From: Actinomycetota bacterium
GTDB taxonomy: Bacteria; Actinomycetota; UBA4738; HRBIN12
Direction: 5' to 3'
DNA: 64,000 nucleotides
NCBI GenBank assembly: GCA_036390995.1
Contig: DASWAT010000111.1
Location: 378-64,377 of the forward strand
In this document: piece after piece, positions 26,124-33,950 of the stretch
Numbering within the stretch: the stretch's first letter is position 1
Layout: each line of letters starts with the position of its first letter
Notes under the pieces: model-generated
Databases searched by the model: none
The model's input: the letters and a program-made list of their open reading frames with translations, nothing else
Told to the model about the DNA's origin: nothing
Made by a program: the position numbers and the translations under genes

Positions 26124-27356
26124 TCAGCCCTCCGTCGGCTCCTCCACCGCGGCCTCACCGATCGCGGTGGGCTCCTCGGGGGTGTCGGCGGCGTGTTCGG
26201 GCGCCTGCTCCTCCGCGACCGGGGCGGGCTCCTGCGCGACGGGCTCCTCGGCGACCGGCTCCATCGGGGCGGGCTCCTGGGACGGGGCCGGGGCTGCGGC
26301 TTCTGCGGCCCGTGCGGTGCCGCCCCGCTGCTCCTCCGCGAACTGGGTCTCGCTCTTGATGTCGATCCGCCACCCGGTGAGCCTGGCGGCCAAGCGCGCG
26401 TTCTGGCCTTCCTTCCCGATCGCCAGTGACAGCTGGTAGTCCGGGACGATCACCAGCGCGGTCTGCGAGTCGGGATCGATCTGCACGCGGTTGACCTTCG
26501 CCGGCTGCAAGGCGTTGGCCACGAACGTGGGCGGGTCGGCGCTCCACGGAACGACGTCGATCTTCTCGCCGCGAAGCTCGTTCACCACCATCCGCACCCG
26601 TGATCCCTTCGGGCCCACGCAGGCGCCGACGGGGTCCACGCCCGGCTCGCGCGAGGACACCGCGAGCTTCGACCGGTGACCCGGCTCCCGGGCCACGGCG
26701 CGGATCTCGACGATGCCTTCCTCGATCTCCGGGACCTCCAACTCGAACAGCTTCTTCAGCAGCCCCGGATGCGTGCGGGACACGACGATCTGCGGCCCCT
26801 TCGTTCCCTTGCGGACCTCGGTGATGTAGGCCTTCAGCCGCTCACCGTGCCGGTACGGCTCGGACGGGACCTGTTCGGCCTGTGGGAGGAGCGCCTCGAC
26901 CTTACCGAGGTCGAGCAGCGTGTACCGACGTTCCTGCTGCTGCACGATGCCGGTCACCACGTCGCCCTCGCGCCCGGCGAACTCCTCGTAGGTCATCTCG
27001 CGCTCGGCATCGCGGAGCTTCTGGAAGATCACCTGCTTGGCGGTCTGCGCGCCGATGCGTCCCTTGAACTCGTCCGTGACCTCGACCTCCTCCTCGGAGA
27101 TCACCTTCGTCTGCGGCTCGCCCTCCTCGTCCTCGACCTCCTCGAGCCTCTGGAGCCAGACGCGGAGGTCGCCGGACTCCGGGTCGATCTGCGCGCGAAC
27201 GCCGAACGACTCCTCCTCCTCCTCGGGATGCTGCTGCTTCCACCACGACTTGTAGGCGGACGCCATCGCCTCCTCGAGGCCGGCCAGGATCGTCTCGAAC
27301 GCGATCCCCTTCTCCCGCTCCAGCTCGCGGAGCGCCGCGATCATGTCGGCATTCAT
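26124..27356 (-). CDS. nusA: transcription termination/antitermination factor NusA
   Basis: Starts MNADMIAALRELEREKGI, a NusA N-terminus, and contains S1 and tandem KH domains. The C-terminal about 70 aa are an acidic, Pro-rich tail. The ATG overlaps the rimP stop (ATGA). Confidence 0.9.
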   Translation of the reverse strand: MNADMIAALRELEREKGIAFETILAGLEEAMASAYKSWWKQQHPEEEEESFGVRAQIDPESGDLRVWLQRLEEVEDEEGEPQTKVISEEEVEVTDEFKGRIGAQTAKQVIFQKLRDAEREMTYEEFAGREGDVVTGIVQQQERRYTLLDLGKVEALLPQAEQVPSEPYRHGERLKAYITEVRKGTKGPQIVVSRTHPGLLKKLFELEVPEIEEGIVEIRAVAREPGHRSKLAVSSREPGVDPVGACVGPKGSRVRMVVNELRGEKIDVVPWSADPPTFVANALQPAKVNRVQIDPDSQTALVIVPDYQLSLAIGKEGQNARLAARLTGWRIDIKSETQFAEEQRGGTARAAEAAAPAPSQEPAPMEPVAEEPVAQEPAPVAEEQAPEHAADTPEEPTAIGEAAVEEPTEG

Positions 27357-30010: not shown

Positions 30011-31615
30011 TCAGGCGTGGGTCACGACGTCGACGGTCTCCTGCCAATCCTGGGTCGGCCCGTCACCGTCGGCCTTCGCGTACTGGTTGATCATCACGAT
30101 CTGCGACGGGTCGGACGGGTTGCGGGCGATGCCGTTGAAGTCGCCCCAGCGCTCGGGCCCCCGGGTCGCCTCGAATCGGGCGGTCCCGGGAGCCAGCTCC
30201 GTGAGCGTCGCCTGGGTCGTCCCCGGTGGGATCTCGGCGGCCCACGCCGACAGGTACTCGTGCGTGAGCGCGCCGGCTCGGCTGTACGTGACGAACAGGT
30301 TGCCGGATCCGTCCGTGGCGACCACCGGCCACCCCGCGTCCGTCTCCGGGGTTCCGACGATGCCCTGGCGGCTCAGCGACGAGGCTCGGAGCCGGCCCAT
30401 CGGCGCCACCTCGTACCACCGGATCGCGGCCTCCGGGTACCCTCCGGGCCGCGTGTCCGGGCGGAGGTTGCGGAAGATGACGTGCGCGGCGTACAGACGG
30501 TCGAGGTCGGCGTCGTAGAAGGCGTTGATCAGCCGCAGGTCGCCGGGGTCCCACCAGGTGTTCGCCTTCTTCAGGCTGCCGTCTCCCTGTGTACCGAACG
30601 GAGAGATGCCCACGTTGGCCACCGGCAGATCGGCGCGCTGGAGCTGGAGGCCCGAGGCTCGCTCCTTCAGCCTCCATACGATGAGGGAAGAGGCCCGTCG
30701 ATCGCGCTCGAAGGACAGGAAGTACTGCATGGCCGGGGCCGTCCCCGCGCTCTGCGCCGGCTGGATGGTGAACGCGGCCGTGCGGTCGGGGTTCCTGGTG
30801 GCCGCCCCGGCGAACCGGTCGAAGGCGGTCGGCTGCGTGCAGTCGTAGAGGCTGGTCTTCGGGAACGAGAGGATCTGGGCGTAGTCGAACGCGAGATGCT
30901 CGAAGTCGAACTGGTTCGTGGTCACGACCACCCGGTCGGCGTCGTAGCCGAGTCCCGGGTAGTCGGCCCACTGGCGGCCGTCCCGCCGGACCTGATCGGC
31001 CTTCATGCGCCGGGCGCACCACGTCGCGGGGTCGTTCGCGGTGGCGTCGGGGACCGTCACCATCTGGATCCAGCTCCGGCGCAGGCCGTCGTTCACCGCC
31101 AGGTACACCAGCACGAACGTCTGTCCGTACGGGTCGTAGACGACCTTCGGGTCGAAGATCTGGGTGCCCGAGGGGTACGTGAAGAACGGCTCGAACGAGG
31201 TGGGGGGTATCACCGGGGTCCCGGTGAGGTCGTACAGGGCGTACGAGGTGTTCACGGCGGTGAGGATCCACTGGGAGCCCATGGCGCCACTCGGATCGGC
31301 CGGCCAGTTCGGCCCGGTCCTGGGGATGGCGTCGAAGTGGAGGCCCGAGACCGGGGTGCGCGGCGAGGGCCGAGCCTCGGTCGCGCGGCCGAGCGGATGC
31401 CGATCCGACGAAACGGGGTAGCTCCCGCGCAGCAGCGGCCGCACCGTCCTCGAGGGCACGATCGACGGTGCGGGGACGAACGTCCGGTGCCAGAGGCGGG
31501 CGGGGGCTGGGTCCCGGGGAACGACGCCTGCGGCGAGCGCCGGCGGGGGCAGCGACAGCAACGACACCGCCGTGCTTGCCGCCAGTGCCAGGCGAAGTGC
31601 TGCAGGTGGACGCAT
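30011..31615 (-). CDS. secreted hypothetical protein (about 534 aa) with an N-terminal signal peptide
   Basis: Signal peptide MRPPAALRLALAASTAVSLLSLPPPALA. The ATG is preceded by AGGAGA at 5 nt. The long Arg-rich upstream extension in the track ORF is likely non-coding. No recognised catalytic motifs; the Gly/Trp/Asp-rich body might be a beta-propeller. Confidence 0.55.
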   Translation of the reverse strand: MRPPAALRLALAASTAVSLLSLPPPALAAGVVPRDPAPARLWHRTFVPAPSIVPSRTVRPLLRGSYPVSSDRHPLGRATEARPSPRTPVSGLHFDAIPRTGPNWPADPSGAMGSQWILTAVNTSYALYDLTGTPVIPPTSFEPFFTYPSGTQIFDPKVVYDPYGQTFVLVYLAVNDGLRRSWIQMVTVPDATANDPATWCARRMKADQVRRDGRQWADYPGLGYDADRVVVTTNQFDFEHLAFDYAQILSFPKTSLYDCTQPTAFDRFAGAATRNPDRTAAFTIQPAQSAGTAPAMQYFLSFERDRRASSLIVWRLKERASGLQLQRADLPVANVGISPFGTQGDGSLKKANTWWDPGDLRLINAFYDADLDRLYAAHVIFRNLRPDTRPGGYPEAAIRWYEVAPMGRLRASSLSRQGIVGTPETDAGWPVVATDGSGNLFVTYSRAGALTHEYLSAWAAEIPPGTTQATLTELAPGTARFEATRGPERWGDFNGIARNPSDPSQIVMINQYAKADGDGPTQDWQETVDVVTHA

Positions 31616-31742
31616 CGATGTCTCCTGAGGGATCGCGGGCGGGGTGAGCGAGACGGTATCCGAAAGGGAGAACGCCGTCCAGTGTCCGGGGTTGTGCGGA
31701 CGTTGACGGCGGCGGCGCCCACACCGCACAATCGTCGCCACG

Positions 31743-31808
31743 ATGAGCTGCGCGATCCACTGGTCCTGGCCTTGGGGCTCGAGGAGCCCGGAGCCGGCGC
31801 GCGCCTGA
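31743..31808 (+). CDS. trp operon leader peptide (21 aa, three Trp codons within five codons)
   Basis: Reads atg agc tgc gcg atc cac tgg tcc tgg cct tgg ggc ..., i.e. MSCAIHWSWPWGSRSPEPARA. It sits in the 269-nt region just upstream of trpE, with a GC hairpin following. Confidence 0.6.
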   Translation: MSCAIHWSWPWGSRSPEPARA

Positions 31809-31836
31809 ACATCGTCACGACAGGTTCGACCGAAGA

Positions 31837-31868
31837 AGCCCCGGGCGGCGCCCGGGGCTTCACGTTGC
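31837..31868 (+). terminator. putative attenuator hairpin between the trp leader peptide and trpE
   Basis: agccccgggcggcgcccggggct forms an 8-bp GC stem, followed by ttcacgtt. The trpE RBS (GAGGAGGA) lies immediately downstream. Confidence 0.4.
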
Positions 31869-31884
31869 CACGAGGAGGACGCAG

Positions 31885-33387
31885 GTGCGGGTTCGACCCG
31901 ACCGCGGGACGTTCGACGGGCTGGGCACCGCTTGGCCGCTCGTTCCGATGTGGACGGAACTGCTCGCCGACGTCTCGACGCCCGTCGGTGTGTTTCCGGC
32001 ACTGGCCTCGGACGGTCCCGGCATCCTGTTGGAGAGCGTGGAGCGCTCGGAGCGGTGGGGGCGGTTCTCGTTCGCGGCCGGCGATCCTGCTGCGATCGTC
32101 CTTGCGGGGCCCGACGGCGTCGAGGTCACCGAGGTGCGCCGTGAGCGACTCCCGGTGGCGGTCCCCGAACCCGGCATGCCGGTTCGGGCCGCGCTTCGAG
32201 CGGTCGCGGACTCCCTGGCGGCCCCGCGATCCTCCGAGCTCCCCTCCCTTACCGGCGGCCTCATGGGCTACCTCGCGTATGAGGCCGCGCGGTTGCTGGA
32301 CGGCCACCCCGCGCCCGCCGTGGCCGATGCGCCGTGCCCGCCGATCGGGCTGTTGGTCGTGGACCGAGCGGTCGTCTTCGACCACTGGCGCCAGCGCTTG
32401 CTTTTGGTCGCCCACGTCCCGCCCGGCGCGTACGACGTCGGCGTGGAGGCGCTTGAGGCGCTCGCGGCGACCGTACGGGCAGCCGCCCCTCCCCCTCCGG
32501 AGCCCTTCCACCCCTTCGACGTGCCAACGGCAGCCACGGACGAGGGGAGTCCGAACATGGACGACGCACGGTACCGGCGGATCGTCGCCGACTTCAAGGA
32601 TCACATCCTCGCCGGTGACATCTACCAGGCAGTCCCTTCGCGGCGCGTGTCGTTCCCGGCAGCGGCCGGCGGCTACCCCGTCTACCGCCGGCTCCGCGTG
32701 ACGAACCCTGCGCCCTACATGTTCTTCGTGCGGATGCTCGGCATGGAGCTCGCAGGCTCCTCGCCCGAGCCGCTCGTGCGGGTCGAGGGTCGGCGGGTGT
32801 CTACCCGACCCATCGCCGGCACGCGGCCTCGAGGACGAACCGAGGTCCGCGACCGGCTCCTCGAGCACGAGCTCCTGGCCGACCCGAAGGAACAGGCCGA
32901 ACATGCGATGCTGGTGGATCTGGCCCGGAACGACCTCGGCCGCGTGTGCCGTCCGGGCAGCGTTCGCCCCACGGAGCTGATGGTCGTCGAACGGTTCTCG
33001 AAGGTCATGCACATCGTGAGCACGGTGGAGGGCGAGCTGGCGGAGGGACAGGACGCCTTCGATGCCCTCGCCGTCACGTTCCCGGCGGGGACCGTGACCG
33101 GCGCGCCGAAGCGCCGGGCCATGGAGCTGATCGCGGATGCGGAGCCCACACCGCGCGGGCCGTACGCGGGGGCGGTCGGTTACCGGACCTTCGCCGGGGA
33201 CCTCGACTTCTGCATCACGATCCGGACCGCGGTGGTGAGCGGTGGAACCGCCCACGTCCAAACCGGCGCCGGCGTCGTGGCCGACTCGGACCCGGATGCC
33301 GAGCTCCGCGAGACGAAGGCGAAGGCGGCGGGGCTCCTGCCCGCCGTGGTCGCCGAGCCGGCGGAGATGGGAGACACGCCCGCATGA
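31885..33387 (+). CDS. trpE: anthranilate synthase component I
   Basis: 500 aa in the chorismate-binding enzyme family, with LLESVERSERWGRFSF near the N-terminus and a GAVGY...FCITIRTAV C-terminal region. The upstream Trp leader supports TrpE over PabB. Confidence 0.8.
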   Translation: MRVRPDRGTFDGLGTAWPLVPMWTELLADVSTPVGVFPALASDGPGILLESVERSERWGRFSFAAGDPAAIVLAGPDGVEVTEVRRERLPVAVPEPGMPVRAALRAVADSLAAPRSSELPSLTGGLMGYLAYEAARLLDGHPAPAVADAPCPPIGLLVVDRAVVFDHWRQRLLLVAHVPPGAYDVGVEALEALAATVRAAAPPPPEPFHPFDVPTAATDEGSPNMDDARYRRIVADFKDHILAGDIYQAVPSRRVSFPAAAGGYPVYRRLRVTNPAPYMFFVRMLGMELAGSSPEPLVRVEGRRVSTRPIAGTRPRGRTEVRDRLLEHELLADPKEQAEHAMLVDLARNDLGRVCRPGSVRPTELMVVERFSKVMHIVSTVEGELAEGQDAFDALAVTFPAGTVTGAPKRRAMELIADAEPTPRGPYAGAVGYRTFAGDLDFCITIRTAVVSGGTAHVQTGAGVVADSDPDAELRETKAKAAGLLPAVVAEPAEMGDTPA

Positions 33388-33950
33388 TCCTGGTCGTCGA
33401 CCACTACGACTCCTTCACGTACAACCTCGTCCAGTTGGTCGAGAGCCTCGGCTACCCGACCATGGTCGTGAAGAGCGACGCAGAGCCGGCAGAGGCCCTC
33501 GTGGACCGGCGCCCGGACGCGGTGATCCTCTCCCCCGGCCCCGGCCGGCCCGAGGACGCCGGGTGCTTCCTCGACCTCCTGCGCCTGCTCCCGGCCGAGA
33601 CGCCGGTGCTCGGGGTGTGCCTGGGCCACCAGGCCCTCGGCATGCATCTGGGCGGCCGAGTGGATCGAGCCGCGCCGATGCACGGGAAGGCCTCGCTCGT
33701 GTACCACGACGGCGCTGGGATACTCGAGGGCGTGGCCAGTCCCTTCGAGGCCGGGCGGTACCACTCCCTGGTGGTCACCCGGGACAGCCTGCCCGCCGAA
33801 CTCGCCCTCACCGCCTGGACCGAGGACGGGGTGGTCATGGCCACCCAGCATCGCGAGCTCCCCCGGTTCGGCGTCCAGTTCCACCCCGAGTCCATCCTGA
33901 CCCCCGAGGGTCCGGCGATCGTCGAACGCTTCCTTCGCGTAGCCCGCTGA
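33384..33950 (+). CDS. trpG: anthranilate synthase component II (class I glutamine amidotransferase)
   Basis: The ATG overlaps the trpE stop (ATGA). It carries the triad-type GATase signature GVCLGHQ and a HPES C-terminal motif. Length is 188 aa. Confidence 0.8.
   Translation: MILVVDHYDSFTYNLVQLVESLGYPTMVVKSDAEPAEALVDRRPDAVILSPGPGRPEDAGCFLDLLRLLPAETPVLGVCLGHQALGMHLGGRVDRAAPMHGKASLVYHDGAGILEGVASPFEAGRYHSLVVTRDSLPAELALTAWTEDGVVMATQHRELPRFGVQFHPESILTPEGPAIVERFLRVAR

Follow-up and report, generated by a model that had tools for sequence, protein, structure and literature searches.

In the window, that is the whole 64-kb stretch of DNA that was analysed, a gene for a trpE-like anthranilate synthase component I was located on the plus strand at 31885..33387. 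The gene has a GTG start and encodes 500 aa with the Pfam domains Anth_synt_I_N (E-value 1.7e-20) and Chorismate_bind (7.9e-90). It is followed on the same strand by a gene for a trpG-like glutamine amidotransferase component II (33384..33950, 188 aa, GATase), the ATG of which overlaps the trpE TGA (ATGA, 33384). The original prediction had read this pair as the anthranilate synthase. For TrpG this was borne out, as the protein passes TIGR00566 with 183 bits against a cut-off of 121. For TrpE it stood in part: among the NCBIfam models it is those for anthranilate synthase component I that match best, and PabB models score lower (350.5 bits), but the equivalog cut-offs were missed (474 against 693 and 463.6 against 517.7). 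A Trp leader upstream of trpE, described below, gives independent support for a role of TrpE in Trp synthesis. It favours annotating TrpE and TrpG as a Trp-regulated anthranilate synthase despite the position of TrpE below the curated equivalog thresholds.

Pfam scans placed the gene pair in a row of housekeeping genes. On one side the order is rnj, dapA, pnp, ribF, infB, nusA, rimP, proS and then trpL-trpE-trpG; past trpG it continues with ispG, a two-component pair, rseP, cdsA, pyrH, tsf, rpsB, a sigma factor and xerC, followed further along by dprA, rnhB, lepB, trmD, rimM and ffh. Between positions 26124 and 35205, trpL-trpE-trpG and a gene for a putative secreted protein are thus found between proS and ispG, amid this housekeeping backbone. 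The proS-ispG interval is an unusual home for a pair of Trp-biosynthesis genes. The divergent neighbour of trpE (30011..31615, minus strand) encodes 534 aa with a signal-peptide-like N-terminus (MRPPAALRLALAASTAVSLLSLPPPALAAG...) and had no match in Pfam or NCBIfam. The Pfam-scanned candidate genes, which span most of the 64-kb window, include no trpD, trpC, trpF, trpB or trpA, in line with the earlier statement that the other trp genes are not nearby.

The intergenic region between the minus-strand gene, the ATG of which ends at 31615, and the trpE GTG at 31885 is 269 nt long (31616..31884). A trpL-like leader ORF on the plus strand (31743..31808) encodes MSCAIHWSWPWGSRSPEPARA*, with 21 sense codons followed by TGA. 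Its Trp codons, UGG at 31761, 31767 and 31773 (W7, W9 and W11), form a W-x-W-x-W motif at 31761..31775. Coordinates and translation both agree with the divergent gap, the 21-codon ORF and the three Trp codons in five positions that had been described for this region. There are three TGG trinucleotides in the region in total, and every one of them lies in the frame of the leader ORF. When the region was shuffled 5000 times with its dinucleotides preserved, an ORF of 8-40 codons with at least three Trp within five codons turned up only 4 times, which corresponds to a probability of about 0.0008 for a Trp-rich leader ORF to arise by chance.

Relatives of the locus were collected in one TrpE scan of species-representative genomes. 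It yielded 80 loci with TrpE identities of 71-85%; each comes from a MAG, and almost every one carries an Actinomycetota label. Upstream of trpE, 56 of the 80 loci have a 22-codon leader ORF that follows the pattern M-x6-W-x-W-x-x-G-S-x-S-P-x-P-x-R-x, and after a search with a covariance model made from the aligned leaders the element was counted in 59 of 80. These 59 consist of 55 aligned loci, L023, L050 and the two loci L012 and L054, which are truncated by contig ends. L050, L012 and L054 were added by the covariance model and L023 was confirmed by it; L023 had been omitted from the alignment, as the terminator pattern search missed its hairpin. In the window the covariance model found exactly one copy (31740..31872, 104 bits) and no second one; the other match was the reverse strand of the palindromic hairpin.

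In the alignment of 56 leaders the invariant columns are TTGAC, A..ATC, the G of the start codon, two TGG codons (W-x-W) and the CCCCGG/CCGGGG core of a hairpin downstream. The A and T of the start codon are at least 90% conserved, and three leaders have a GTG start. The two core TGG codons correspond to the columns T64 G65 G66 and T70 G71 G72 and to the first two Trp codons of the window; the third Trp codon is confined to a subclade. Codons 2-7 and the codon between the core Trp codons vary freely. Conservation of the small ORF, on which the original prediction had made itself dependent, is thus seen in 59 of 80 related loci, with the two core TGG codons invariant while neighbouring codons vary. 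In nine loci the leader has 14 codons and stops in the loop of a hairpin formed by the first two RNA segments (1:2, described below), and GAGCCCGG is still conserved 3' of the stop. As GAGCCCGG is kept past the early stop, the conservation of the C-terminal half of the peptide (G-S-x-S-P) acts at the RNA level. A functional micropeptide was rejected as a candidate on the ground that this conservation persists as RNA where the ORF stops early.

A promoter scan of the intergenic region gave one site (TTGACG-18-CACAAT, 31703..31732, plus strand) against 0.0 expected. The TTGAC of the -35 box TTGACG (31703..31708) is invariant in 56/56 aligned leaders. The -10 box CACAAT (31727..31732) has the consensus nAnnAT followed by C in the relatives, with the columns A31, T35 and C36 invariant in the alignment. 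In 56 of 57 leaders the two boxes stand 17-18 nt apart, and the leader ATG follows the end of the -10 box at a distance of 6-10 nt in the 57 leaders and of 10 nt in the window. Transcription usually starts 6-8 nt past the -10 box. The conserved promoter would place the transcription start at the leader ATG or at most about 4 nt upstream, leaving a 5' UTR of 0-4 nt. A distance of 9-10 nt, as in 37 of the 57 leaders, is a bit far for a strictly leaderless start. The leader ORF has no SD, and since the promoter ends 6-10 nt before the ATG, it is probably leaderless or nearly so and translated without a ribosome-binding site. That no such site is obvious upstream of the ATG had been remarked upon before and raised as an objection to an attenuator. 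The remark is correct and the objection is not refuting, as the arrangement TTGAC-17/18-nAnnAT with an ATG 6-10 nt away fits a leaderless start. For Streptomyces lividans, TSS mapping is reported to show that trpL1, which precedes a monocistronic trpE and is accompanied by hairpins and by a U-enriched stretch, is leaderless, as are further leader peptides (PMC8079986).

Downstream of the leader ORF lies a GC-rich hairpin, the putative terminator (3:4, 31835..31861, plus strand). Its 12-bp stem, GAAGCCCCGGGC / GCCCGGGGCUUC, closes a GGC loop and has a predicted energy of -25.7 kcal/mol. The hairpin is followed by ACGUUGCCAC (31862..31871), the Shine-Dalgarno sequence of trpE (GAGGAGGA, 31872..31879) and the GTG. 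A strong GC stem-loop before the trpE SD had been predicted; its presence was verified, and its size had to be corrected, the stem-loop being slightly larger than described. RNAalifold, applied to the 56 leaders, recovered the terminator as the sole structure. Across these leaders 89% of the cells are paired, compared to at most 65% in slid controls, and 51 cells carry double (compensatory) changes, a covariation value reached by 0 of 500 shuffles.

Two further helices, 1:2 and 2:3, were specified by hand for testing, since RNAalifold gave the terminator alone. The 1:2 hairpin, a putative anti-antiterminator (31766..31797, plus strand, -20.3 kcal/mol), is formed by segment 1 (31766-31780) and segment 2 (31784-31797) around the core GGGCUC/GAGCCC. 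Segment 1 overlaps the second and third Trp codons (UGG 31767 and 31773). The 2:3 helix, a putative antiterminator (31786..31846, plus strand), pairs GCCCGG at 31786-91 with CCGGGC at 31841-46 and GC at 31793-94 with GC at 31838-39, in a domain of -26.2 kcal/mol. Neither 1:2 nor 3:4 can coexist with it, and the three structures have similar predicted stabilities in the window. In the 56 leaders 76% of the 1:2 cells are paired, compared to at most 48% when slid, and 85% of the 2:3 cells, compared to at most 53% when the partner was slid. Covariation scores were matched in 5 of 500 shuffles for 1:2 and in 3 of 500 for 2:3, the latter with 9 double-change cells. Covariation is limited in these two helices because their cores are nearly invariant, as is expected where one segment must pair with two partners; limited covariation in such segments has been noted for other attenuators (PMC1262725).

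Fold energies were not discriminating in sequence of 70% GC and were therefore replaced as tests by in-register pair counts and by a positional test of stalled-ribosome folds. The fold energy of the whole leader is unremarkable for this GC content (z = -1.62; 9 of 200 shuffles fold as well), and the energy support for the antiterminator is moderate, as shuffled controls pair too (mean z = -0.6). The MFE fold of the window leader contains both the 1:2 hairpin (31766..31797) and the 3:4 terminator. To model stalling, a ribosome footprint was put on a Trp codon and the 3' arm of the terminator was treated as still untranscribed; folding then yielded the pairing of segment 2 with segment 3. With the ribosome on the last Trp codon, sequence 13-46 nt past that codon paired with 6 nt or more of the 5' arm of the terminator in 45 of 56 loci, compared to 45% for shuffled sequences. 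An alternative antiterminator pairing, without which the original prediction would have had to be given up, was thus found in the modelled folds (GCCCGG 31786-91 with CCGGGC 31841-46) and is in register among the relatives. Sequestration of the SD and the start codon was considered as a separate candidate and rejected: the MFE helix 31799..31806 : 31883..31890 is not conserved in the 11 closest leaders.

Taken together, the Trp codons, the mutually exclusive helices 1:2, 2:3 and 3:4 and the conservation in 59 of 80 loci support the reading of the region as ribosome-mediated trp attenuation, as first proposed. The element is very probably a classical ribosome-mediated transcription attenuator of the trpE-trpG operon. 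We infer leader translation, termination and the Trp dependence of termination from the sequence. Transcription would begin at the leader ATG or no more than about 4 nt from it, and the 21-codon leader would be read from a leaderless mRNA that has no SD. Under a shortage of charged tRNA-Trp, the ribosome would stall on the UGG codons at 31761-31775 and cover segment 1, so that segment 2 (GAGCCCGGAGCC) becomes available to segment 3 (GCCCCGGGC) as a pairing partner. The antiterminator thus formed would block the terminator, and RNA polymerase would read on to trpE-trpG. When Trp is plentiful, the ribosome would proceed over segment 2 to the UGA at 31806, or depart so that 1:2 re-forms; in either case segment 3 would be taken up by segment 4, and transcription would end before trpE at the resulting 12-bp GC hairpin and its tail, which contains U. 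If the leader were not translated at all, 1:2 and 3:4 would form and termination would result.

The tail following the terminator, ACGUUGCCAC, is a weak U-tract in the window. It has 2 U in 10 nt, and the efficiency of termination at the window's own hairpin is therefore uncertain. A weak U-tract would suit a mechanism in which leader ORF and hairpin act mainly on the translation of trpE, by re-initiation, by coupling or by masking of the start region, and in the window the MFE does pair 31799-31806 with the trpE start region. A role in re-initiation has been proposed for actinobacterial leader genes (PMC4833913), and the example of two relatives, L033 and L039, shows that coupling can evolve here: their leader ORF continues across the hairpin until its stop overlaps trpE (GTGA). 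However, the SD and the start codon of trpE are outside any conserved structure, even when the 11 closest leaders are taken by themselves; hairpin and trpE start are separated by anything from 24 to 98 nt; and in the window 76 nt lie between the leader stop and the trpE start, too far for coupling. Furthermore, T-rich tails past the stem are strongly enriched among the relatives, as a terminator predicts: the mean T content of the 10 nt after the stem is 0.34 in the relatives' leaders, compared to 0.125 in the upstream background (p = 4e-10). A mainly translational mechanism is improbable on this evidence.

The same two U in ten could also be taken as a sign that termination at the hairpin is factor-dependent, assisted by Rho or NusG, with the position of the ribosome governing the access of the factor. 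Rho-dependence has been suggested for mycobacterial cys leaders that lack terminators (PMC1262725). However, the 12-bp GC hairpin shows covariation and most relatives have U-enriched tails, which fits an intrinsic terminator, and an exclusive antiterminator is conserved, for which a purely Rho-based scheme has no need. This explanation is considered very unlikely. The least credible explanation, to which hardly any weight can be given, is that the small ORF encodes a functional micropeptide or arose by chance, and that the hairpin has a structural or stabilising role unconnected with it: W-x-W-x-x-G-S-x-S-P does appear conserved as a peptide, but free variation is seen at residues 2-7 and at the position between the Trp codons, G-S-x-S-P coincides with the GGCUC...GAGCCCGG stem that the nine early-stop loci conserve as RNA, a chance origin has the low shuffle probability of about 0.0008, and the element is always located before trpE.

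With attenuation as the preferred reading, the distribution of the element among the relatives can be considered. On a tree of TrpE the leader is spread over the whole group, and the relatives without a leader are found in three or four clades. This pattern suggests an ancestral attenuator that was lost repeatedly. About 19 relatives do without the element. No leader of any kind was seen in L007, L011, L013, L018, L017, L021, L034, L038, L043, L045, L048, L058, L065, L070, L071, L072 and L075. The leader-less relatives have a short 5' region upstream of trpE with its own promoter-like boxes and an SD. In L033 (2860-3010) and L039 (2860-3010), the promoter is the same and the CCCCGGG/CCCGGGG hairpin and a T-rich tail are retained, and about 60 nt with the Trp codons and segments 1-2 are absent. 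A leaderless ORF, MRHVEPRAHGPGFVRSMGARG*, crosses the hairpin in both loci, and its TGA overlaps the trpE GTG (GTGA). The arrangement suggests a derived form with translational coupling and without Trp sensing. A further variant is L050 (2819-2944, 51 bits with the covariance model), in which a one-base shift separates the frame of the leader ATG from that of the TGG codons; either the leader has decayed or the assembly is in error at this point.

Published trp attenuators of the classical type from Corynebacterium and Streptomyces combine double or triple UGG codons with GC-rich terminators and show complementary triples that are conserved (PMC1262725), and PMC4833913 cites experimental support for trp attenuation in C. 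glutamicum and S. venezuelae. The closest resemblance is to the trpL/trpE leaders of Streptomyces (S. venezuelae trpEG; S. lividans/coelicolor trpL1-trpE), which are likewise actinobacterial and high in GC and have a leaderless leader ORF, as is probable here (PMC8079986, PMC1262725, PMC4833913). In both cases a short Trp-codon leader directly precedes an anthranilate synthase gene unlinked to the other trp genes, conserved complementary triples are found in antiterminator and terminator, and GC-rich hairpins are followed by a U-enriched stretch, which in the present family is a matter of the mean and is weak in the window. The leader peptides are unrelated in sequence: the Streptomyces leader MFAHSTRNWWWTAHPAAH has three tandem Trp codons, whereas the present family has W-x-W(-x-W), with the core Trp fixed at positions 8 and 10 in a leader of about 22 codons. 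The conserved triples, as described, also set the two apart, with GGGCUC / GAGCCCGG / CCCCGGGC / GCCCGGGG here and gGCC-rGCy-GGCC in Streptomyces. The host, unlike Streptomyces, belongs to an uncultured lineage of Actinomycetota.

The trpL of C. glutamicum shares ribosome-mediated attenuation with a Trp-codon leader, based there on RNA-seq and on leader mutations (PMC3890552, PMC1262725, PMC4833913); the trpE leader peptide is picked up by RNA-seq in that species (PMC3890552). The C. glutamicum attenuator governs the whole trp operon, whereas the element of the window precedes trpE-trpG alone. With E. coli trpL (Rfam Trp_leader) the element shares the four-segment logic, with segment 1 over the Trp codons and mutually exclusive 1:2, 2:3 and 3:4 helices. 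The stop codon of E. coli trpL lies between segments 1 and 2, as in the 14-codon relatives; in the window it lies after segment 2. Unlike E. coli trpL, the leader of the window has no SD, its Trp codons are spaced and not adjacent, and its U-tract is weak. The two are not alike in sequence or by covariance model: a cmscan of 31000..32500 with E up to 10 gave no match to Rfam Trp_leader or any other RNA family; the only matches were chance hairpins of 13-19 bits, compared to gathering scores of 39-112.

An attenuator solely on trpE(G), with the other trp genes in separate operons, is also known from Sinorhizobium meliloti, where the released leader RNA, rnTrpL, has a demonstrated trans-acting role (PMC6614838). 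A similar function is conceivable here because the attenuator is on trpE-trpG alone, the other trp genes are elsewhere and the RNA core is invariant throughout the lineage. By analogy with rnTrpL, the terminated leader transcript of about 120 nt might act in trans as well and coordinate the unlinked trp genes, an idea to which only a small chance is assigned.

Judged by its predicted parts, the element is an ordinary textbook-type leader-peptide attenuator in an uncultured actinobacterial lineage. The example will not surprise a specialist and leaves the knowledge of attenuation itself unchanged, but it is useful for annotation. What it adds is a well-conserved, putatively leaderless trp attenuator from uncultured Actinomycetota that lies outside the Rfam models. 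The 56-sequence alignment and the covariance model could seed an RNA family. The leaders of 22 and 14 codons, the complete losses and the ORF coupled through the hairpin are natural variants for studying how an attenuator is built up or lost. One of the relatives, L001 (JBHGAT010000009.1), is titled 'Candidatus Velamenicoccus archaeovorus', whereas the other relatives are Actinomycetota. Its TrpE is 85% identical to that of the window and is preceded by the same leader; the contig is probably mis-binned.
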